DNA of 64,000 nucleotides, from the NCBI RefSeq assembly GCF_030013205.1, contig NZ_CP122648.1, one strand, 5' to 3'. The notes beneath the pieces were generated by a model. It did no database searches, had not been told where the DNA came from, and worked only from the letters and a program-made list of their open reading frames with translations. Of this stretch, positions 2,203 through 64,000 are shown piece after piece. The first letter of the stretch is position 1. Each line of letters starts with the position of its first letter. A program made the position numbers and the translations under genes. This DNA comes from Escherichia coli (GTDB lineage Bacteria; Pseudomonadota; Gammaproteobacteria; Enterobacterales; Enterobacteriaceae).

Positions 2203-4392
2203 ATGTTTGTGGAGCATAACCTGATAAAAAATATCAAGATATTCACACTAGCGTTTACGCTCACCGTGGTACTTATTCAGCTATCCCGTTTTATTTCGCC
2301 ACTTGCCATTATCCATTCCAGTTATATCTTTCTGGCGTGGATGCCACTGTGCGTAATGCTGTCAATCTTGTTTATCTTTGGCTGGCGCGGTGTCGTTCCC
2401 GTTTTATGCGGGATGTTTTGCACCAATCTGTGGAACTTTCATCTCTCTTTTTTACAGACCGCGGTCATGCTCGGCAGCCAGACGTTTGTTGTGTTGTGTG
2501 CCTGCGCAATATTACGCTGGCAGCTGGGGACGCGTTGGCGTTATGGATTGACCAGCCGATATGTCTGGCAACGTCTTTTCTGGCTTGGTTTGGTGACGCC
2601 GATCGGCATCAAATGCAGCATGTATCTTGTGGGGAGCTTTTTTGATTTCCCGCTAAAGATATCCACCTTTTTCGGCGATGCGGATGCCATTTTCACAGTC
2701 GTTGATTTACTAAGCCTTTTCACCGCTGTGCTGATTTACAACATGCTTTTCTACTATCTCACTCGCATGATTGTAAGTCCCCACTTTGCGCAGATATTGT
2801 GGCGCAGGGATATCGCTCCGTCGTTGAGCAAAGAGAAACGCGCATTTACCTTAAGCTGGCTGGCAGCTCTTAGCGTGCTGCTACTTCTGATGTGCACACC
2901 GTATGAGAATGACTTTATTGCCGGTTACCTGGTACCTGTTTTCTTTATCATCTTTACCCTCGGTGTCGGTAAGCTTCGCTATCCGTTTTTAAATCTCACC
3001 TGGGCTGTTTCAACGCTTTGCCTGCTGAACTACAACCAGAACTTTTTGCAAGGGGTACTAACCGAATATTCGCTGGCATTTATTCTCGCGGTGCTGATTT
3101 CCTTTAGTGTTTGCCTGCTCTATATGGTGCGCATTTATCATCGCAGTGAATGGCTTAATCGCCGCTGGCATTTGCAGGCGCTGACCGATCCGTTAACGCT
3201 CCTACCCAACTTTCGTGCGTTAGAACAAGCGCCGGAGCAAGAGGCGGGCAAGAGTTTTTGCTGCCTGCGCATTGATAATCTTGAGTTTATGAGTCGTCAT
3301 TACGGCTTAATGATGCGCGTTCACTGTATCCGATCAATTTACCGTACGCTGCTGCCGTTGATGCAGGAAAACGAAAAGTTGTATCAATTGCCGGGTAGTG
3401 AACTGCTGTTAGTGCTGAGTGGACCGGAAACGGAAGGGCGACTCCAGCATATGGTTAACATCCTGAATAGTCGGCAAATTCACTGGAACAATACCGGGCT
3501 GGATATGGGCTATGGTGCTGCCTGGGGGCGTTTTGATGGAAATCAGGAAACCCTGCAACCCTTGTTGGGGCAGTTAAGCTGGCTGGCGGAGCAATCCTGC
3601 GCACATCACCATGTGCTGGCGCTGGATAGCAGAGAGGAGATGGTTTCCGGGCAGACCACTAAACAGGTGCTATTGCTGAATACCATTCGTACGGCGTTAG
3701 ATCAGGGTGATTTGCTGCTCTACGCCCAGCCAATTCGCAACAAAGAGGGTGAAGGTTATGATGAGATCCTCGCGCGACTGAAATATGACGGCGGCATTAT
3801 GACCCCGGATAAGTTTCTGCCCCTTATTGCTCAGTTTAACCTTAGCGCGCGTTTTGATTTGCAAGTGCTGGAATCCTTGTTGAAGTGGCTGGCAACACAC
3901 CCTTGCGACAAAAAAGGTCCGCGCTTTTCAGTCAATTTAATGCCGCTCACGCTGCTGCAAAAGAATATTGCCGGGCGGATTATTCGTCTGTTTAAGCGTT
4001 ATCACATCTCCCCGCAGGCGGTCATTCTTGAGATCACCGAGGAGCAGGCGTTTTCTAACGCAGAAAGCAGCATGTACAACATCGAGCAACTGCATAAGTT
4101 TGGCTTCCGGATTGCGATTGATGACTTTGGCACCGGCTATGCCAACTACGAACGGTTAAAGCGTTTGCAGGCTGATATCATCAAAATTGATGGTGTCTTT
4201 GTGAAAGATATCGTCACGAATACGCTGGATGCGATGATTGTGAGATCAATTACCGATCTGGCGAAAGCGAAGTCATTGAGTGTGGTCGCGGAGTTTGTCG
4301 AGACGCAACAGCAGCAGGCGCTATTGCATAAGCTCGGGGTGCAATATCTGCAAGGGTATTTGATTGGTCGCCCGCAGCCATTAGCTGATTAA
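2203..4392 (+). CDS. yfeA: Membrane c-di-GMP phosphodiesterase (MASE1 - degenerate GGDEF - EAL), YfeA/PdeA
   Basis: ORF 2143-4392; start placed at internal Met (MFVEHNL) giving 729 aa as remembered for K-12; multi-TM N-terminus, EAL-type C-terminus. Confidence 0.85.
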   Translation: MFVEHNLIKNIKIFTLAFTLTVVLIQLSRFISPLAIIHSSYIFLAWMPLCVMLSILFIFGWRGVVPVLCGMFCTNLWNFHLSFLQTAVMLGSQTFVVLCACAILRWQLGTRWRYGLTSRYVWQRLFWLGLVTPIGIKCSMYLVGSFFDFPLKISTFFGDADAIFTVVDLLSLFTAVLIYNMLFYYLTRMIVSPHFAQILWRRDIAPSLSKEKRAFTLSWLAALSVLLLLMCTPYENDFIAGYLVPVFFIIFTLGVGKLRYPFLNLTWAVSTLCLLNYNQNFLQGVLTEYSLAFILAVLISFSVCLLYMVRIYHRSEWLNRRWHLQALTDPLTLLPNFRALEQAPEQEAGKSFCCLRIDNLEFMSRHYGLMMRVHCIRSIYRTLLPLMQENEKLYQLPGSELLLVLSGPETEGRLQHMVNILNSRQIHWNNTGLDMGYGAAWGRFDGNQETLQPLLGQLSWLAEQSCAHHHVLALDSREEMVSGQTTKQVLLLNTIRTALDQGDLLLYAQPIRNKEGEGYDEILARLKYDGGIMTPDKFLPLIAQFNLSARFDLQVLESLLKWLATHPCDKKGPRFSVNLMPLTLLQKNIAGRIIRLFKRYHISPQAVILEITEEQAFSNAESSMYNIEQLHKFGFRIAIDDFGTGYANYERLKRLQADIIKIDGVFVKDIVTNTLDAMIVRSITDLAKAKSLSVVAEFVETQQQQALLHKLGVQYLQGYLIGRPQPLAD

Positions 4393-13851: not shown

Positions 13852-14888
13852 TGGATTTATCGTTATTAAAAGCGTTGAGCGAGGCAGATGCGATCGCCTC
13901 CTCGGAACAGGAAGTGCGGCAGATCCTGCTGGAAGAAGCGGATCGCCTGCAAAAAGAAGTGCGATTTGACGGCCTGGGATCGGTGCTGATCCGCCTCAAT
14001 GAATCGACAGGTCCGAAGGTGATGATCTGTGCGCATATGGATGAAGTGGGATTTATGGTGCGCAGCATCTCCCGCGAAGGGGCGATCGATGTGTTGCCGG
14101 TTGGCAATGTACGCATGGCTGCCCGCCAGCTTCAGTCGGTGCGTATCACTACCCGTGAAGAGTGCAAAATTCCAGGCCTGCTTGACGGCGACCGGCAGGG
14201 GAATGACGTCAGCGCCATGCGCGTGGACATTGGTGCGCGCTCGTATGACGAAGTGATGCAGGCGGGAATTCGTCCAGGCGATCGCGTCACCTTTGATACA
14301 ACTTTTCAGGTTCTCCCTCACCAGCGGGTGATGGGGAAAGCCTTTGATGATCGCCTCGGTTGCTATCTGCTGGTGACGTTACTACGTGAGCTGCACGACG
14401 CCGAACTGCCTGCGGAAGTGTGGCTGGTGGCCAGCTCCAGCGAAGAGGTGGGATTACGCGGCGGGCAAACCGCTACCCGTGCGGTTTCACCGGACGTTGC
14501 GATTGTGCTGGATACCGCCTGCTGGGCGAAAAACTTTGATTATGGCGCGGCTAACCATCGCCAGATTGGTTACGGGCCGATGCTGGTATTAAGCGACAAG
14601 TCGCTGATTGCGCCGCCAAAACTTACCGCGTGGATTGAAACCGTGGCGGCAGAAATTGGCGTGCCGTTACAGGCAGATATGTTCAGCAACGGCGGCACGG
14701 ACGGTGGAGCGGTGCATTTAACAGGCACTGGCGTACCCACAGTGGTGATGGGGCCTGCCACCCGCCACGGACATTGCGCCGCATCGATTGCCGATTGCCG
14801 TGACATTTTGCAGATGCAGCAGCTTTTATCTGCCCTTATTCAACGTCTTACGCGTGAGACGGTTGTTCAACTGACGGATTTCAGATGA
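13851..14888 (+). CDS. ypdE: Aminopeptidase YpdE (M42 family)
   Basis: 345 aa; start overlaps the ypdF stop (ATAATG); M42 peptidase-like. Confidence 0.85.
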
Positions 14889-18280: not shown

Positions 18281-19015
18281 TTAAAGATGCATTAACTGGC
18301 GGAATTCTTTAACTTTGCTGCGGCTGACTGGCACTTCAAAATCCAGATCTTTCAGCCGCAGAATATAGGTGTTATTAAACCACGGTTCGATCTCGCGGAT
18401 TTTGTTCAGATTGACACAAAATGAGCGATGGCAGCGGAAAAAATGCGATGGCGGCAGCTTGCTGCAAAACTCGGTAATGTTCATCGGCATTACGTAGGAT
18501 TCACGCCGCGTATAGACAAAGGTCATTTTCTCGTGCGCTTCGGCGTAATAGATATCGTTAATTGGCGTGACAATGATTCGCTCATCTTTCACCAGATTAA
18601 TGGTGTCATTCTCACGCGTTACCGTCGTGGCAGGCGTACTGCTGGTCTGCTGTTGTTGCCAGGCCGCTTCCAGTTTTTGCAGCATCCCGGTAATGCGTGA
18701 CTCCTGATACGGTTTGAGAATGTAGTCAAACGCTTCCAGTTCAAATGCTTCTACCGCATGTTCTTTCCACGCGGTGATGAACACAATAAACGGTTTATGG
18801 GCGAACTGGCTGATGTTTTGCGCCAGCAACACGCCATCCAGCGACGGAATATTGATATCCAGAAAAATGGCGTCGACGCGGTTATGCTGCAAAAACTTCA
18901 ACACGTCCAGACCGTCGTCAAAGGTGCCGACAATCTCCATCTGGCTGTGCTCTTTAATTAGCCAGCTCAGTTCCTGTTGTGCCAGGAATTCGTCTTCAAC
19001 AATGATGACTTTCAC
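18281..19015 (-). CDS. ypdB: LytTR-family response regulator YpdB
   Basis: Receiver domain plus LytTR domain; ORF extends to 19033, start placed at an internal GTG (MKVIIVEDEF) from memory of K-12. Confidence 0.8.
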   Translation of the reverse strand: MKVIIVEDEFLAQQELSWLIKEHSQMEIVGTFDDGLDVLKFLQHNRVDAIFLDINIPSLDGVLLAQNISQFAHKPFIVFITAWKEHAVEAFELEAFDYILKPYQESRITGMLQKLEAAWQQQQTSSTPATTVTRENDTINLVKDERIIVTPINDIYYAEAHEKMTFVYTRRESYVMPMNITEFCSKLPPSHFFRCHRSFCVNLNKIREIEPWFNNTYILRLKDLDFEVPVSRSKVKEFRQLMHL

Positions 19016-19029
19016 AATATCACTCCGGC

Positions 19030-20727
19030 TCAAAGCAATAACGTAGCCTGTGAGGCGACTGGGGTGCGTTGGTTAGGAATGTAAAACGCAATTTCCGTCC
19101 CCGGTTCCAGGCGGCGGATATGCAGCCCCTCGCCATACAATAACTTCACGCGATGATGGACATTCAGCAGGCCAATTTTATTGCCCGGCATTTCGTTCGC
19201 TTCGACCCGCTCAATCACCTTTGGATCGATGCCGTGCCCGGTATCTCGCACCGCAATACGTACCCGATTACCGCACTCTGCAACGCTGATGGTGACAACG
19301 CCTTTACCTTTGCAAGGCTGGATACCGTGGACAATGGCGTTTTCCACCAACGGCTGGATCAGCAGGCTGGGAATGCAGCAATTCACCTCTTCATCAATAT
19401 CATAGATAACCGTCAGCTTGTCGCCAAAGCGGGCCTGCTCAATGGCAATATAGTCTTTAATTTGATACAGCTCTTTTTTGATATCGATTTGCTCATCGTC
19501 TTTTAATTCAATGTTATAGCGCAGATAACGCGACAGATTAAAGATCAGCTGGCGAGCGGTATCCGGATTCAGACGGATTGACGATGAAATAGCGTTCAAA
19601 GCGTTAAACAGGAAATGGGGATTAATTTTGCTTTGCAGGGCGCGAAGCTCTGCCTTATTTGCCATTTCACGTAGCTGCTCGGCGCGTGAAACCTCCAGTT
19701 GCGTGGAGATGATTTGCGACAGACCGACCGCCATTTCCTGTAATGATGACGTAATCTGATGCGCGTGGCAGTAGTAAATTTTCAGTGTTCCGGTCACAAC
19801 GCCTTTCTCCCACAATGGGATCACCAGCATGGAATGAATCTCTGGTGTGCGGTGGGCTTCATCATTGTTTTTAATGATGATTTTTCCGTAATTCATCGCC
19901 TGTCGGGTAGTCGGGCTAATGAAGTCATCGCCATTCTGATAGTTGTGTTCACCCACGCCAACATAGGCCAGCACATGATCGGTATTGGTAATCGCCACCG
20001 CATCGGCATGAATATCATCGCGGATAATTTCACAAACTTTGCGTAATGACTCGCTATTGACATGGCGAAACAGCGGCAGCGTTTTGTTGGCGATATCCAG
20101 CGCCAGCTTGGCCTGCCGCGCGGCGCTGGCCTCTTTTTCGCCCTCAACGCTTTGCACCAGCAGCACAATAAAGCCGATACAGACGCTACCGAGGATCATC
20201 GGAATCCCGATTTTAGAGACGATATCGATCCCCAACGCGGTAGTTGGTGCCCAGACAATCACCAGAATCATGGTCAACGTTTCACATAACATGCCGCCGA
20301 GAATACCGACGCGCCAGCGCTGTGCTTTGGGGATTTTCAGGTTGATCCAGCCCGATATACAACCCGCCAGAATGCTGGTGATAAAGCAGGGGATCGCCGT
20401 CACGCCGCCGATATCAATTAAATACCGGTGAATACCCGCAATCACGCCGGTAATGATGCCTACCCACGGGCCAAACAGAATCCCGCCTGACATCACCGCG
20501 ATAATACGAACGTTCACCAGCGAGCCTTCTACGGGAACGCCGGACCAGGTGCTGAACAGGGCGAACAGCGAGAAAATGGCGGTAACAGCGAGCAGCTCTT
20601 TTGGGGAGTGCGCCGACTTGTGCAACAGTTCGCGAAACAGGCGGATACGGATGAGAAAGAACAGGCAGATAAGCATTAACGCTGCCCGATCGAAGACCGC
20701 CAGCAGCATGTTGAATATTTCGTGCAC
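19030..20727 (-). CDS. ypdA: Sensor histidine kinase YpdA (5TMR-LYT/GAF/HisKA_3)
   Basis: 565 aa; membrane N-terminus, His kinase motifs ([16 protein letters not shown]). Confidence 0.9.
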
Positions 20728-21103
20728 GGGTGACTCTGAATAAGGATTAAACCTCTATGATAGGTAACCTGAAGGCTGATGACCAGCAGGCCGTTTTTGA
20801 GGAAAAACCACAATTTTAAAAGGGGATTGAAAGATAAATGGTGTATTAGCAATGCATCTCTTGATAATGCACATCTGCTTGGTAAATTTATTGAAATTAT
20901 AATGTTAATAAAATGAGTGGTAATTTTCTTGTTAGCGCAGATAAATTTCCTGTTTTTGAAGTGGCGTTCCTCATTTAAAGCCATTGATAAAAATGTTCTA
21001 AAACGCTGGACAGACAGAAATTAATCAGGCTATTTTCAAAACAGCCACCATCGTGGCAGCGTCGCTCGGACGGTCCGGGCGCTAACGTTAATCTGAGGAA
21101 ATT

Positions 21104-46708: not shown

Positions 46709-46723
46709 TGGTGTCCCCTGCAG
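46709..46723 (-). repeat. att-core repeat: copy of the argW tRNA 3' end (reverse complement of CTGCAGGGGACACCA)
   Basis: tggtgtcccctgcag with no tRNA body attached; a second degenerate copy lies at 59970-59988. Confidence 0.6.
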
Positions 46724-46796
46724 ACATCTACTTGAAGCGGCAGGGGATTGATTGGAATGGTGTTTTTTAGGTGTGAGAAATATTTTACCCGCTATT

Positions 46797-46997
46797 TTAC
46801 CCATTGGCGCGGCTTAAGAGCTTATTTTTGAATTCACAATGGTCACGATATAACCATCTTGCTCGCCCGTGGATAACTTTGGCTTTTGGCAGGTCGCCGG
46901 ACTTAATCCGGTCGTAGATGAAGGTTTTACCAAAGCCAGTATCAGCCATGATGAATTTCAAATCAACCAGGGAATCAGGCTGTAGTTCGTGTTGCAT
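46797..46997 (-). CDS. AlpA/Vis-family phage transcriptional regulator / excisionase-like protein
   Basis: 66 aa with the AlpA-type motif …TGFGKTFIYDRIKSGDLPKAKVIHGRARWLYRDHCEF…. Confidence 0.65.
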   Translation of the reverse strand: MQHELQPDSLVDLKFIMADTGFGKTFIYDRIKSGDLPKAKVIHGRARWLYRDHCEFKNKLLSRANG

Positions 46998-58650: not shown

Positions 58651-59808
58651 TCACTCCACCTTTTCATCAATCCAGTCCGCCCACCACTGCATCATCTCCC
58701 GGCGCTTATCGAGATACTGAGCATGGTTGTAAATCCCGCGCACAGATCCGCCGTTGGCATGTGCCAGTTGCACTTCAATAGCATCAGCAGGCCATTCGTG
58801 CTCGTTCATAATCGTGCTGAATTCATGCCTGAATCCGTGACCGCTTTCCAGACCTTCATAGCCGATTTGTTTGATCACAAGCAGTACAGCGTTCTCGCAG
58901 ATTGGCTTCTTCTTATCGTTGCGCCCGGCAAAAACAAACTCTGATACTGGTTTAGTGATTGAGCTTAGTGTAGTGAGAAGTTCAACCACCTGGTCTGACA
59001 TCGGGACAACATGAATTTTGCGTCCCTTCATCACACTGGCGTCGATGGTGATAATCCTGTTTTCAAAATCGACGTTCTTCCATAGCATGGAACGAAGCTC
59101 TTTTGTTCTTAGGGCTGTGTAGCGTAAAACTTTGGTCGCAATGAGCGATACGATACTTCCTGAAAATGTTGCAAGTGCTTTGTTGAATGCCGGGATCTGG
59201 TCGGCAGGTAAAAACGGGAAGTTCTTCTTGCGGTATCCCTTCATGGCGTCAGCAAGGTCAGGTGCCGGGTTATATTTAGCCCTACCAGTAACAATAGCGT
59301 AACGGAAAACCTCGCCGCATCTTCTGCGTGCTTTGTTGGCTCGCTCCATTGCACCGCGATCTTCAAATCTGCGGATTACTTCCAGAAGTTGCATCGGCTC
59401 AATATCCTGAATTTCAAGGCCGCCGATGATAGGTAAAATGTCGTCATCAAACATTTTTGCAAGTTCATTTGCATAGCCTACTGACCAGACTTGCTTCTTG
59501 TGCTCGTACCATTCCTTGTAAATGGCGCTAAAGGAATTGTTGTTAGACGAAGCCTTTTTCGCCTTTACCGGATCGATGCCAACCGAGATGTCTTTCCTCG
59601 CAGTCCATGCTTTATCCCTTGCCTCTTGCAAAGTCATAAGCGGATATTTTCCGACGGTCAGGATTTTCTCCTTACCGTCAATCTTGTAGCGAAGCTGCCA
59701 TACCTTTTTCCCTGATACAGGGACATAAAGATACAGGCCATTACCATCGAGTAGGCGGTATGGTTTTTCTTTCGGCTTTGCTGCTTCAATCTGCTTAACG
59801 GTGAGCAT
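58651..59808 (-). CDS. intS: P4-type tyrosine integrase (IntS-like, N-terminal DUF4102 arm-binding domain)
   Basis: MLTVKQIEAAKPKEKPYRLLDGNGLYLYVPVSGKKVWQLRYKIDGKEKILTVGKYP…; catalytic R…HxxR…Y region near the C-terminus; start at internal Met of ORF 58651-59844. Confidence 0.88.
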   Translation of the reverse strand: MLTVKQIEAAKPKEKPYRLLDGNGLYLYVPVSGKKVWQLRYKIDGKEKILTVGKYPLMTLQEARDKAWTARKDISVGIDPVKAKKASSNNNSFSAIYKEWYEHKKQVWSVGYANELAKMFDDDILPIIGGLEIQDIEPMQLLEVIRRFEDRGAMERANKARRRCGEVFRYAIVTGRAKYNPAPDLADAMKGYRKKNFPFLPADQIPAFNKALATFSGSIVSLIATKVLRYTALRTKELRSMLWKNVDFENRIITIDASVMKGRKIHVVPMSDQVVELLTTLSSITKPVSEFVFAGRNDKKKPICENAVLLVIKQIGYEGLESGHGFRHEFSTIMNEHEWPADAIEVQLAHANGGSVRGIYNHAQYLDKRREMMQWWADWIDEKVE

Positions 59809-59969
59809 GGGTAAAAATCCGGTGGGTAAAATTATTTTATCCACTTTTTACCCGTCATGGAGTGCGGCTGTCAACGATCTGACGCGAACCATGACGAACC
59901 GTGAATATACGGAAGGCTTGATATTCAGGGTATTTTGCGGACTGGTACGGATGGGAGCGAACTGATAAA

Positions 59970-59988
59970 TGGTGTCCCTGCAGAAATC
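59970..59988 (-). repeat. Degenerate att-core repeat derived from the argW 3' end
   Basis: tggtgtccctgcagaaatc versus the reverse complement of the argW 3' end tggtgtcccctgcaggaatc (one deletion, one mismatch); no tRNA body. Confidence 0.5.
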
Positions 59989-60205
59989 ATCTTAATTATT
60001 ATCATATTGATTTATATGTTATTTATTTTAGCCATCTTGTTTTTGTACCCGTTTTGTACCCGTTTTATTCTATTCCCAATTTAAACTTCGATTCTGGAAA
60101 GGTGAGTAGGGGAGGTTATCATTTTATGTATCATTGTTGTAGACACAGAATAATTACTCGCCTATCCTCACTGTATACACACCATAGATACAGGAGTTAA
60201 CCCAC

Positions 60206-60454
60206 ATGCGCACACAGGTTGTATTGCAAAAATGGGGTAACAGCATTGCCCTTCGACTAACGGGAAACCTTAAAACCGTTCCGGGTTTTTCAGTGGGTGA
60301 TATCGTCAACGTTGAAATTAGTGAAAAAGGGCTTTTTGTAGAAAAGCCTGCACGCCGTCGCCTGAGTGAAGCCGAACTACTCGCCGGGATAACGCCAGTT
60401 ACAGCGCACGCTGACGAAATTGCCACCCCATTCAATGAGGAGGTTGATTACTGA
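60206..60454 (+). CDS. MazE/PemI-like antitoxin (AbrB/SpoVT-type swapped-hairpin)
   Basis: 82 aa, MRTQVVLQKWGNSIALRLTGNLKTVPGFSVGDIVNVEISEKGLFVEKP…; RBS aggag; stop overlaps the toxin start (TGATG). Confidence 0.75.
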   Translation: MRTQVVLQKWGNSIALRLTGNLKTVPGFSVGDIVNVEISEKGLFVEKPARRRLSEAELLAGITPVTAHADEIATPFNEEVDY

Positions 60455-60798
60455 TGTTTGTACCTAAGCGTGGTGATATTTGCTGGCTGGATTTTGAGCC
60501 GCAGAAAGGAAAAGAGATCGGAAAGTATCGCCCGGCACTCATACTATCCCATGAGCAATATAACCGACTCACCGGGCTTGTCATATGCTGCCCCATAAGT
60601 ACGAGCATACGAAATGCTCCCACAGAAGTTCCGGTAACAAATCTGGACGCCCCCAGCGTGGTAGCAACCACACTCATTCAAACCCTTGACTGGCGTCAGC
60701 GGAAAGCGCGCTTAATCACAGAGGCAGAAGATGGGGTATTTAATGATGTGCTTGAAAGAGTCATTACTCTGATTGGTGGAGAGCATCTGCTTAAGTAA
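60454..60798 (+). CDS. MazF/PemK-family endoribonuclease toxin
   Basis: 114 aa, MFVPKRGDICWLDFEPQKGKEIGKYRPALILSHEQYNRLTGLVICCPISTS…; translationally coupled to the upstream antitoxin. Confidence 0.75.
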   Translation: MFVPKRGDICWLDFEPQKGKEIGKYRPALILSHEQYNRLTGLVICCPISTSIRNAPTEVPVTNLDAPSVVATTLIQTLDWRQRKARLITEAEDGVFNDVLERVITLIGGEHLLK

Positions 60799-60841: not shown

Positions 60842-62113
60842 CTATTCTTTCCAGTCAATCCCATCCAGTAAGCACCCTGCCTCATATTGCCCCACCACCC
60901 AGTCAAGGTTACAGGACTCATAGAACGCGAGGCGATTATACTGAGGCTCGTTTTTTACCAGGCCACGAACGGAACCACGCTGCCAGTACAGACACAGATT
61001 GGCAAGAGGTGTGATCAATACAGCATTGTCCGGGAAAAATGGAACGGTCACAGCCGGGAGATTCCCCAGAACGGGATTTTTAATGATTTCCTCGTTAAGC
61101 AAAATTTCCTGATTCATCTGCGATGGATCAAGACGGTTTATCAAAGGCCATTGTTTACGGACCAGCGTATTGTGACTGCATACGGCCACAATGCCTTCCT
61201 GCCACTGTTCATCAATCATGGATTGCCAGGCATCCAGAACGAGCGCATCTATCGTATGGTGTGTACCGCGTATATTACTTTTCGGTGATGAGACAGAAAG
61301 GCCGCTGATAACCCTTCCCGCCGCTTCATTTCGAAACTTCTGCAACCAGCCCACGCCGCAATCGTCACGCCCCGGATATGTTCCGGGATCTGATACATCG
61401 GCATAGTGCGTACCGTTAAAACCAATCTGAATCAAATCCAGCCATTTCTGGCGTTCAAAAGCAGCCCGGGCGCTTCCTTCAAGACCGTTTGCGGATGCGT
61501 GAGCATCAACATTGTCGTAGTTCAGCGCAAAATCAAAATTAACCTGCTCGCAGCGGTAGCCCCTTGAAACCAGTGAATGCGCCTGTAGTGGCGAGCGGCG
61601 CTCGTGAGGTGGCGATGTACGTGCTAACGGCCCCGAAGCGTCTACCAGCACAACCTGACCTGATATATCCGTAACAGGCACGGGAGTTATTTCAGCAAGG
61701 AAATTTGCCTGCCATCCACTGGCAAGCGTTGCACTCTGGCGGGGGACGGGTTCAACTTCTGACGAATAGCGCGCAGTGTCACCGGAAAAGTGCAAATCCT
61801 TCGGATGCTTTCCGGTTATCGACTCGATAGCGCAATTGAAAACCATCTGAGACTGTTGATTTCGTTGTGATACAACAGAATCAGCAGTGCAATTATAACG
61901 CTCAATGCCGTCGTTATTACCCCCACCGCTTGCAGTATGCAGGGTGTGAAGCTCAAGCTCACGCTCCAGTTTTTGATATTCATTGTCCAGCGCGCGACGC
62001 GTCTCATCGCTTATGCTTGCTGTGTTTGCTTTCAGGCGATTCCGGGACATTAATCCCCTGAGTCGGCTCACTATATCAGCGCCGTGCAAATGTGGAGTAT
62101 TCAGACCGCCCAT
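60842..62113 (-). CDS. P2-family major capsid protein-like (GpN-like), tentative
   Basis: Segments (…CEQVNFDF…, …IGFNG…GVGWLQKFRNEA…, …LGNLPAVTVPFFPDNAVLITPLANL…YESCNLDWVVGQYEAGCL…) resemble remembered P2 GpN; start placed at the Met whose ATG overlaps the upstream gene's stop; listed ORF extends to 62254. Confidence 0.5.
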   Translation of the reverse strand: MGGLNTPHLHGADIVSRLRGLMSRNRLKANTASISDETRRALDNEYQKLERELELHTLHTASGGGNNDGIERYNCTADSVVSQRNQQSQMVFNCAIESITGKHPKDLHFSGDTARYSSEVEPVPRQSATLASGWQANFLAEITPVPVTDISGQVVLVDASGPLARTSPPHERRSPLQAHSLVSRGYRCEQVNFDFALNYDNVDAHASANGLEGSARAAFERQKWLDLIQIGFNGTHYADVSDPGTYPGRDDCGVGWLQKFRNEAAGRVISGLSVSSPKSNIRGTHHTIDALVLDAWQSMIDEQWQEGIVAVCSHNTLVRKQWPLINRLDPSQMNQEILLNEEIIKNPVLGNLPAVTVPFFPDNAVLITPLANLCLYWQRGSVRGLVKNEPQYNRLAFYESCNLDWVVGQYEAGCLLDGIDWKE

Positions 62114-62823
62114 TACTGCCACCCCCGGCAGAGTTCTCTGCCCTCCGCAAGGTCGCGCATTTTTTCTGGATTCTGTCGCGCCGCGCTCCATTGTACAGGT
62201 GAAGGGGCGCTCCTGATTGCGCAGCTTACTGAATCCGGGAGTTTCTCCGGGCAATAACGCAGCGGGCTGGAGGTGTCGCTTTCGGTATCGTTAATCCGGC
62301 CGCGAATCATCCCGACACTTTCAGCAGTATCTGCCGCTTTCAGTGTTTCGCATATTTTCTTTTCTGCGTTATACAGCGGCTGGCCAAGTAGCTCACATAA
62401 ACCACGAATCAATAACAGAACAGGGGTCAGCTCGTTAATCAGTTCGGGAAGTGCTTTTGCAAATATCTCTGCCCGCAACTTATTATCAATGCTTTCGTAA
62501 GCACAACCAGCCTCTGCCGCGTTATAACGACACTCCAGTAGCCTGATGCGCGCTTCATCATGCAATACCCGCAGACGCTCAAGATTTTCTCGCGCCACAC
62601 CCGCCTGAATGGATAATTTCGCGGAGGCTTCCGTTTTTACGCCCAGCGCAGACAGGATTGAGTTCTGCCAGTCACGATCGAGAGATTCCAGCTCCCCTTT
62701 CGTCTGTTCGATAGTCGCTTCCAGATTGGTGATTAATGATTCCTGTTCACTGAGTTTTGCCATGGCTGTATCAAACTGTGCTTTACATACCTGATGTTCG
62801 GCGCTTGCCTGAGTTATATCCAT
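62113..62823 (-). CDS. Coiled-coil phage morphogenesis protein (scaffold/Sid-like), tentative
   Basis: 236 aa, helical N-terminus; immediately upstream of and translationally coupled (ATGA) to the capsid-like gene. Confidence 0.35.
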   Translation of the reverse strand: MDITQASAEHQVCKAQFDTAMAKLSEQESLITNLEATIEQTKGELESLDRDWQNSILSALGVKTEASAKLSIQAGVARENLERLRVLHDEARIRLLECRYNAAEAGCAYESIDNKLRAEIFAKALPELINELTPVLLLIRGLCELLGQPLYNAEKKICETLKAADTAESVGMIRGRINDTESDTSSPLRYCPEKLPDSVSCAIRSAPSPVQWSAARQNPEKMRDLAEGRELCRGWQ

Positions 62824-62949
62824 TATTTGCTCCTGTAATACATTTTTTTACTTACGCCGATTTTTTCCATATTGCGTAATACATTCCAGCCGATTTTGTT
62901 CTCGTAATACGCTCACAATACTGTTGTATTACGCTTTCTTATATCGCGG
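62824..62949. promoter_or_regulatory. Divergent intergenic control region with repeated GTAATACATT / CGTAATAC motifs
   Basis: gtaatacatt at 62835-62844 and 62876-62885; cgtaatac at 62903-62910; gtattacg at 62926-62933; gccgatttt repeated twice. Confidence 0.5.
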
Positions 62950-63222
62950 GTGTTAAATCCCGGCATAAACAATCAGGGAGGCAACACGATGAAAAAACAA
63001 AAGAAAATGCGATGCGTATTACGCTGTATTCGTATCCCGCACGAAATCGACCATAAAATAAATCAGATATGTGAGGACAGAGAGATGAACTACTCCCAGT
63101 GCGTCAGAATGTTTATCAGTCAGGGAATTAAGGCCGGGGAAAAGCAGGAAGAAGACCACAACGGGCGCAATGTAGCGGGGGATGTGTGGGCCTGGGCAAA
63201 TGACCAGAACCACACGACGTAA
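62950..63222 (+). CDS. Small ribbon-helix-helix-like DNA-binding protein, tentative
   Basis: …MRCVLRCIRIPHEIDHKINQICEDREMNYSQCVRMFISQGIKAG… fits a beta-strand then helix-helix RHH pattern; true start may be the Met at 62989. Confidence 0.4.
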   Translation: MLNPGINNQGGNTMKKQKKMRCVLRCIRIPHEIDHKINQICEDREMNYSQCVRMFISQGIKAGEKQEEDHNGRNVAGDVWAWANDQNHTT

Positions 63223-63272
63223 TACAGAAATAACGCAGCCGGTCACACTCGCTGGCTGTGTTATACAAATCA

Positions 63273-63455
63273 CTATGAAGTTTTCGACTTCCTGCGCTTA
63301 GTAATGCGTACAAACGACTCAAGCGTACAAAAACAAGCCCCACACTCAATATTGTTGCACTGGTAATACGTTCTGTAGATGTTTTGTTCGTGTTCTTCCA
63401 ACGAACGACCACGGGTGCGAGCTGAAGCGCCACAGGCCGGGCAAGGGAAAGACAT
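63273..63455 (-). CDS. ogr: Ogr/Delta-family zinc-finger late-gene activator
   Basis: 60 aa, CPACG…YYQCNNIECGACFCTLESFVR matches the Ogr C2C2 pattern. Confidence 0.7.
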   Translation of the reverse strand: MSFPCPACGASARTRGRSLEEHEQNIYRTYYQCNNIECGACFCTLESFVRITKRRKSKTS

Positions 63456-63745
63456 ATCGCGCTCCTCTTACTGGCGTGAAATTTAACCTATTATATCTTC
63501 CGTTGCCTCCTCTGGCTGTATCAAATAAATCCGCGATGGTCGCTGCGTATTACGCGCAGACACACCGTTCCCATGCTCACTCCTCACATTCCCCGTATCA
63601 ATTCTCTCTTGCCGTAAGAACGGCTCTGGCTGGCGATAAAACTAACCCGGTCAGGCATTCCCGCAGTCTTTAGCGAAAGATGTAATTTACCCCCTGAAAC
63701 GCGGGCTGTTCCCCCGTCACCTGCGCGCGAAAAACTCACCGTTTT

Positions 63746-63844
63746 TTGTGCACGCACGAAATCGCCCTCCGGGCGCGCCAGTACCGGGCCGGATGGGCAA
63801 AAAGTTACTCTAAAAAATTGTGCAAATTTGTGCACTTTTGTGCA
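63746..63844. repeat. Phased TTGTGCA direct repeats (4 copies, last 3 spaced 10 bp)
   Basis: ttgtgca at 63746-63752, 63818-63824, 63828-63834 and 63838-63844. Confidence 0.5.
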
Positions 63845-64000
63845 GATGAACAACAGCGTCAAAAAGAGTGCTTTTGAGAGATTTTTTATGGCAACTGCGC
63901 CGCGTGTATTACGTTTTTACCATCCCCGCCGCGCATGTACATACTTCATTTTTCTGCCAAACAACAGGGCAACTCCCCGTGACTGACAGCCCCAAAAAAT

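Follow-up and report, generated by a model that had tools for sequence, protein, structure and literature searches.

Why should an 11-nt sequence be repeated exactly, unit against unit, close to the end of a mobile element in Escherichia coli? The duplication lies at 60041-60066 of the window, by which we mean the whole 64,000-nt stretch of DNA analysed here (contig NZ_CP122648.1), and reads TTTTGTACCCG twice, followed by TTTT. The original prediction had placed it at an island boundary, immediately inside a degenerate att repeat and upstream of a toxin-antitoxin operon, and had offered three explanations: an integrase arm-site, an IHF-type site or a product of replication slippage. We argue that the first of these is very probably right, with a probability of about 0.85: the two units would be adjacent arm-type sites to which a P4-family tyrosine integrase binds with its N-terminal arm-binding domain, and they would belong to the attachment site of a satellite, on its integrase-distal arm. 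This reading draws on the arm-binding domain of the integrase, the location of the pair in element-derived DNA, the presence of the motif on both arms, its co-variation with the integrase and a position that matches that of the corresponding repeats in phage P4. Sites of this kind are already known for P4-family integrases, and the pair is a further, ordinary case, which in itself matters little; the layout to which it belongs is of wider use.

An exact tandem duplication at the end of an element

Direct reading of the sequence and Tandem Repeats Finder both confirmed the duplication, the program reporting an array at 60041-60066 with a period of 11, 2.4 copies, 100% matches and the consensus TTTTGTACCCG. 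With a score of 52 it shares the top rank among the 16 arrays that the program found in the window, and our own scan of the 64 kb for exact tandem duplications, with units of 8-30 nt, returned this one alone. A chance test on all units of at least 8 nt was dropped as uninformative, since the ~1.2-1.3 exact duplications expected per window are nearly all 8-mers, which dominate the expectation. The run-length argument used instead, calculated with a match probability of 0.251, puts the chance of a run of 15 period-matched bases at ~1.4e-3 per window (periods 8-30) and at ~4e-5 for the local AT-rich 217 bp. The duplication is real, but its non-randomness by itself is silent on function.

Copy 1 reads TTTTGTACCCG on the plus strand and CGGGTACAAAA in the orientation of the satellite integrase. 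The repeat starts 52 nt from the core copy at 59970-59988 and is thus not immediately inside the att repeat; it bears no likeness to the argW core in sequence and sits in element-derived DNA, the same 52 nt from the junction. It does lie upstream of the toxin-antitoxin operon, 140 nt from the mazE start codon (60206) and on the same strand as mazE, and it is outside the mobile mazEF cassette, which begins at 60122 (Table 1).

Table 1. Coordinates of the repeat and of the attachment-site and gene features around it in the window; a dot stands for features given without a strand.
Feature	Position	Strand	Basis or remark
Integrase-distal end of the IntS prophage	46709..46806	.	Core copy, spacer, pair, torI
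intS, integrase of the KplE1/CPS-53-like prophage remnant; not cognate to the repeat	58651..59811	-	
IntS integrase-proximal arm-type sites, GGGTAAAA three times, overlapping the intS start/promoter	59809..59853	.	
Core copy: degenerate argW 3' end TGGTGTCCC-TGCAGAAATC; junction of IntS prophage and satellite; core of the satellite attR	59970..59988	-	Megablast, four-copy alignment
Spacer between core and arm pair, 52 nt, 83% AT	59989..60040	.	Contains the IHF-like match
Candidate arm-type site, copy 1 of the integrase-distal pair	60041..60051	.	Same 10-mer inverted 18 nt upstream of the satellite int start codon
Candidate arm-type site, copy 2 of the integrase-distal pair	60052..60062	.	Kept in four E. 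coli copies and in Rahnella L004
TTTT, start of a third period and T-rich flank of the site	60063..60066	.	2.4 copies
Promoter/operator region of the mazEF cassette; travels with mazEF, not in the att arm	60122..60205	+	37-genome boundary
mazE-like (60206-60454) and mazF/PemK-like (60454-60798) genes, toxin-antitoxin cargo	60206..60798	+	Toxin PF02452, E = 4e-25
Satellite body within the window: P2-family capsid homologue, 236-aa ORF, Ogr/Delta zinc-finger gene	60842..64000	-	

The repeat belongs to a P4-family satellite in argW

To which element does the repeat belong? By megablast, window positions 59850-59988 match the argW-intS junction of ~1900 E. coli genomes, and this homology ends at 59988. 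The DNA to the right is a different element, found at full length in only 10-19 E. coli genomes. One of its copies, in NZ_CP062203 (locus L001), is 100% identical to the window and could be followed beyond the window's right end, where the element runs to a 420-aa integrase and an intact tRNA-Arg. The order there is mazEF, a P2-family capsid homologue, Ogr/Delta, a toprim primase, an Icd-like gene, a Vis/AlpA-like gene, the 420-aa tyrosine integrase and tRNA-Arg, the true argW gene lying at L001 31133-31207. The repeat therefore belongs to a P4-family satellite of ~11 kb that starts at 59989 and occupies argW in tandem with a KplE1/CPS-53-like prophage remnant, with its integrase ~10.8 kb away from the repeat. 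The earlier placement at an element end stands, but the element concerned is the satellite to the right of 59988 and not the IntS element to the left, and the P4-family satellite itself had gone unrecognised. The annotation corrected in this way, a P4-family satellite beside a KplE1-like remnant in a tandem argW array, also fixes the true end of the satellite.

The core copy itself departs from argW in two ways, by a G>A change and by the lack of one C. All four copies examined share the G>A change, which is probably a heterology brought by the satellite attP. The missing C is not seen in strain E94, which has CCCC (core comparison including L085 and L086).

Matching sites lie beside the satellite integrase

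The satellite integrase carries, besides its central and catalytic domains, the arm-binding domain PF13356 (Arm-DNA-bind_3; E = 1.9e-25, residues 3-86). If the pair serves this domain, matching sites may be looked for near the other att copy, as the original prediction had proposed, and this search was positive. The exact 10-mer TTTGTACCCG occurs three times in the 40 kb of L001: in the two units of the pair and in one inverted copy at L001 30972-30981, 18 nt upstream of the int start codon. Just past the inverted copy follow two degenerate direct copies, ATACCCGTTTTTATACCCA, with a period of 12, all three sites falling within L001 30972-31022. The motif is thus found on both arms and in both orientations around the satellite core.

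Comparison with homologous island ends, the other check that had been suggested, found the pair in every homologous end examined. Both units are kept in the four aligned E. coli copies, which are 92.6-100% identical to the window over the stretch with a mean column identity of 96%; the copy in L002 has one A>G change in copy 2, and the most variable stretch of the alignment lies immediately on the core side of the pair. This conservation within E. coli is consistent with arm-type sites, although by itself it is weak evidence. Together, the matching copies on both arms and at homologous ends argue for the arm-site option among the three first considered, as far as sequence comparison can.

The pair follows the integrase module

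Does the repeat travel with the integrase or with the neighbouring cargo? A set of 37 E. coli genomes matches only window positions 60122-60205, the stretch upstream of mazEF, with 94-98% identity there. The one of the 37 that was examined, L003, has the same satellite backbone and mazEF at the 5' end of hpt, with an integrase that is only 24% identical. Its distal pair, ATTGATACAC-CG-ATTGATACAC, replaces the TTTTGTACCCG pair and is likewise 52 nt from the core, and its proximal arm carries the same unit as ATTGATACAC-GC-ATTGATACAC. The opposite case is provided by Rahnella L004, where a 65% identical integrase and a reverse-transcriptase cargo go with the same CGGGTACAAAA pair amid unrelated flanks. 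Since the same mazEF with a different integrase has a different pair, and a related integrase with other cargo has the same pair, the repeat follows the integrase module and not the toxin-antitoxin cassette.

The integrase module holds a second candidate ligand, however. A Vis/AlpA-like protein is encoded next to the satellite int, and its gene, too, differs between L001 and L003 along with the integrase, so that co-variation alone cannot separate integrase sites from excisionase sites. The pair could then be bound by this putative recombination directionality factor, which would bend attR in excision. The spacing of the pair would suit such a role, since an excisionase typically binds direct repeats separated by about one helical turn (PMC7498355). 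We nevertheless regard binding by the excisionase as quite improbable, because the motif occurs on both arms and in both orientations, a signature of integrase arm sites, whereas the sites of recombination directionality factors are usually confined to one arm. In KplE1, moreover, the excisionase TorI uses GTTCG-type sites, all of them on attL (PMC2951348), whereas IntS uses TAAA sites, which resemble the satellite motif. The equivalent repeats of P4 are annotated as arm repeats, and the proximal arm contains a better candidate for an excisionase site than the pair, a conserved TTCGAT box. Arm-type sites for the integrase thus remain our preferred reading of the pair.

The neighbouring prophage has an end of the same geometry

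The prophage remnant to the left offers an internal control within the window. It belongs to the KplE1/CPS-53 type, as also seen from the gtrA-like and glycosyltransferase genes to the left of intS, and it uses the same argW site, in tandem with the satellite. IntS is a heterobivalent integrase with the same domain set as the satellite integrase, though the two are only 33% identical. In KplE1, TAAA is common to the P' arm-type sites, which are located on attL and overlap PintS (PMC2951348); the IntS arm-type sites (TAAA) and the TorI sites (GTTCG type) had both been characterised before that study tested them by mutagenesis (PMC2951348). At the distal end of the prophage in the window, a core copy at 46709-46728 (TGGTGTCCCCTGCAGACATC) is followed by a 54-nt spacer and by the pair ATTTTACCCGCT ATTTTACCCATT, which has a period of 12, occupies 46783-46806 and adjoins torI. 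This end mirrors the geometry of the satellite end, the shared distal layout being core, 54 nt and pair in the prophage. The arm motifs are similar as well (TTTTACCC in KplE1, TTT(T)GTACCC in the satellite). Differences lie in the proximal arm, where IntS has one direct and two inverted sites, and in the distal period of 12.

Given the shared argW core, the near-identical motifs (TTTGTACCC in comparison with TTTTACCC) and the same geometry, might the two integrases recognise each other's arms? IntS could in that case mobilise or lock the satellite, or recombination between the prophage attR at 46709 and the satellite attL at argW could excise both elements as a composite. We consider such cross-recognition unlikely. 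The 11-nt period of the satellite pair might tune cross-talk of this sort between IntS and the satellite.

The region between intS and the core copy (59856-59969) also holds a separate 10-nt tandem array at 59885-59904, CGAACCATGA twice. Read on the intS strand as GGTTCG...GGTTCG, the array is the counterpart of the TorI binding-site block known from KplE1 attL.

One layout with different sites in different integrase subfamilies

How general is the arrangement? A scan with the satellite integrase, limited to one genome per species, yielded 80 loci with 52-65% identity. In the 76 of these 80 that could be scored, the integrase-proximal arm has a fixed order: site, site, (G/A)(G/C)TTCGAT, inverted site, ribosome-binding site and ATG. 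The spacing of the proximal sites is 12 nt in all but two of the scored loci, while their sequence switches by subfamily (GGGTAYAAA; GCGGGTAYA; GAGTATA; TGATGGTAT; TTGGTAAA; GGGGTCAA). Distal ends were captured far more rarely, because most elements exceed the 10-kb flank that was searched; a candidate pair was found there in only 4/76 related loci. One of these four, that of L007, was rejected, having a spacing of 16 and no core after it and lying apparently inside coding-like sequence. Captured distal ends (L004, L071, L033 and L003) all have the cognate pair 52-56 nt from the core. The pairs read CGGGTACAAAA-G-CGGGTACAAAA with a period of 12 in Rahnella L004, GTTGGTAAA twice with a period of 14 in L071, and TGATGGTATCAA TGATGGTATCAT with a period of 12 in L033. 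Apart from two single cross-class hits, matches of the distal 9-mers were essentially confined to the proximal arm of the same class, and control flanks over all loci gave only 2 chance pairs. Altogether, six motif classes were seen, and in six integrase subfamilies, phage P4 included, the core is followed by a mostly AT-rich spacer of ~52-56 nt and two adjacent sites.

The reference point for this layout is P4, whose integrase is of the same family and 53% identical to that of the satellite; our comparison draws on GenBank annotation and on secondary statements. The P4 record NC_001609 annotates an 'attP arm sequence repeat', with one copy inverted at the int start and a period-12 pair on the proximal arm. 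From the P4 core at 4078-4097, another period-12 pair, GGGGGCACAAAA GGGGGCATATTT, begins 53 nt away, close to the 52-nt spacing in the satellite. The two elements thus share a core formed by a tRNA 3' end, an AT-rich spacer and a distal direct pair in the same orientation relative to int. They differ in the target (argW in the satellite, leuX in P4), in the site motif (CGGGTACAAA in comparison with GGGGGCAYA), in the period (11 and 12) and in what lies beyond the distal arm, namely the mazEF cargo in the satellite and the crr replication region in P4. The arm sequence repeats of P4 attP reportedly go back to Pierson and Kahn in 1987 (J Mol Biol 196:487). P4 Int also regulates its own expression by binding DNA directly near its promoter (PMC2951348).

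Against this background, the spacing of the window pair is atypical: its period is 11, whereas L071 has 14 and a period of 12 is found in nearly all proximal pairs as well as in P4, L003, L004 and L033. The window pair has one spacer base fewer than that of Rahnella L004, and the two sites therefore look like a perfect tandem duplication. Replication slippage, the third of the explanations first offered, deserves a closer look at this point. Could the pair be a neutral, functionless duplication in an AT-rich intergenic stretch? The units are 100% identical and stand perfectly head to tail, and a period of 11 in place of the 12 found elsewhere suggests at least one slippage or deletion event. 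As an account of the pair as a whole, slippage is nonetheless highly unlikely. All four of the diverged E. coli copies that were examined carry the pair, as does Rahnella with its unrelated flanks, the pair has matching copies at the int-proximal arm ~10.8 kb away, and pairs of other sequences occupy the corresponding position in five further integrase subfamilies, including P4. Slippage may account for the narrower matter of a period of 11 where 12 is usual; the units themselves are better read as arm-type sites.

The attachment-site layout of the P4 family is therefore rigid, with three proximal sites, the core, a spacer of ~53 nt and the distal pair, and the site sequence switches cleanly between integrase subfamilies. 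Automated delimitation of satellites and islands could build on such a pattern, which could also help to derive a recognition code for the Arm-DNA-bind_3 domain.

The TTCGAT box of the proximal arm merits a remark of its own. In the form (G/A)(G/C)TTCGAT(A/T), it stands between the second direct and the inverted arm sites in 75/80 P4-family integrase loci, ~25-35 nt upstream of the int start in L004-L083 and in the region of 31010-31017 in L001. It stays constant while the arm motif changes by subfamily, and its sequence is similar to the tRNA T-loop as well as to the GTTCG sites of TorI, the excisionase of KplE1. The box may be an excisionase site or a promoter element. Its occurrence beside the distal pairs is inconsistent, and the distal module therefore does not include it.

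A putative control region within the mazEF cassette

The position of the repeat, 140 nt upstream of mazE on the same strand, invites the thought that it is an operator or another upstream element controlling the mazEF operon. The boundary of the cassette makes this very doubtful: the homology of the 37 genomes that share only the promoter starts at 60122 and leaves the repeat out, and L003 has at the equivalent position a different repeat, tied to a different integrase. Promoter-like hexamers at 60140-60168 lie inside the cassette, as do the repeats TGTAGACAC and TGTATACAC (60139-60178), which are themselves candidate operators. The whole cassette (window 60122-60798), 84 nt of promoter region included, has its counterpart in L003 at 14001-14677. 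The pair is thus best assigned to the attachment site and not to mazEF.

A possible role of the pair in recombination

If the two units are arm-type sites, how would they act? In the circular form of the element, the predicted order would be int, three sites (one inverted, two direct with a period of 12), a spacer of ~110 nt, the core formed by the argW 3' end, the 52-nt AT-rich spacer with an IHF-like site, the pair and mazEF. To judge from lambda, KplE1 and P4, the integrase protomers would be expected to contact an arm site through the N-terminal domain and a core site through the C-terminal domains. The arm could be bent back towards the core by a host protein bound in the spacer of 83% AT, and in this way the pair would assist intasome assembly, in integration from the circular form and, when placed in attR as in the window, in excision.

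The bending protein may be IHF, to judge from a 12/13 match, AATCAATATGATA, on the minus strand of the spacer at 60000-60012; a match at equal offset and on the same strand is present in L002, L004 and P4. That the repeat itself is the IHF site, as the original prediction had also considered, we all but discount, in spite of the AT-rich context, the use of IHF by related systems (PMC7286903) and the excision of KplE1 in vitro with IHF (PMC2951348, PMC3509656): no match to the IHF consensus WATCAANNNNTTR lies in or overlaps 60041-60066, a perfect match is absent from the vicinity of the repeat, and the 12/13 sequence in the spacer is the sole IHF-like one.

The same principle is familiar from lambda Int, whose N-terminal domain binds arm sites distinct from the core (P1, P2 and P'1-P'3, with the IHF sites H1, H2 and H'; the principle is summarised in PMC2951348). 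Adjacent arm sites in lambda, too, are about one helical turn apart, and a site for the bending protein lies between arm and core. Lambda and the satellite have unrelated arm-domain families and arm motifs, and their sites are arranged differently and in different numbers, so that the likeness is one of mechanism only.

Cargo and gene content of the satellite

Finally, we would like to describe some features of the satellites that lie outside the attachment site. Comparison of L003 with the satellite of the window provides an example of the exchange of cargo, or of the integrase module, between satellites. In Rahnella L004, the position of mazEF is taken at 18904-20895 by a reverse transcriptase (RVT_1, E = 1e-20) and a 337-aa partner ORF, which are probably a retron-like or Abi-like defence cargo.

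The window's satellite differs from P4 in gene order, has neither sid nor psu annotated and encodes a P2-type capsid homologue. This homologue (60842-62113, minus strand) has 423 aa with ~120 extra N-terminal residues and matches PF05125 with E = 5e-73. The 236-aa ORF next to it (62113-62823, minus strand) is without any family match, and the Ogr/Delta zinc-finger gene lies at 63273-63455, also on the minus strand. A satellite that carries its own P2-type capsid gene may merit separate study. A second integrase-like ORF adjoins the primase gene at L001 23497-24123, the window ending at the equivalent of L001 24151. It encodes 208 aa in K_EC180, the strain identical to the window, in comparison with ~334 aa in L002 and L003, and is therefore truncated in that strain.
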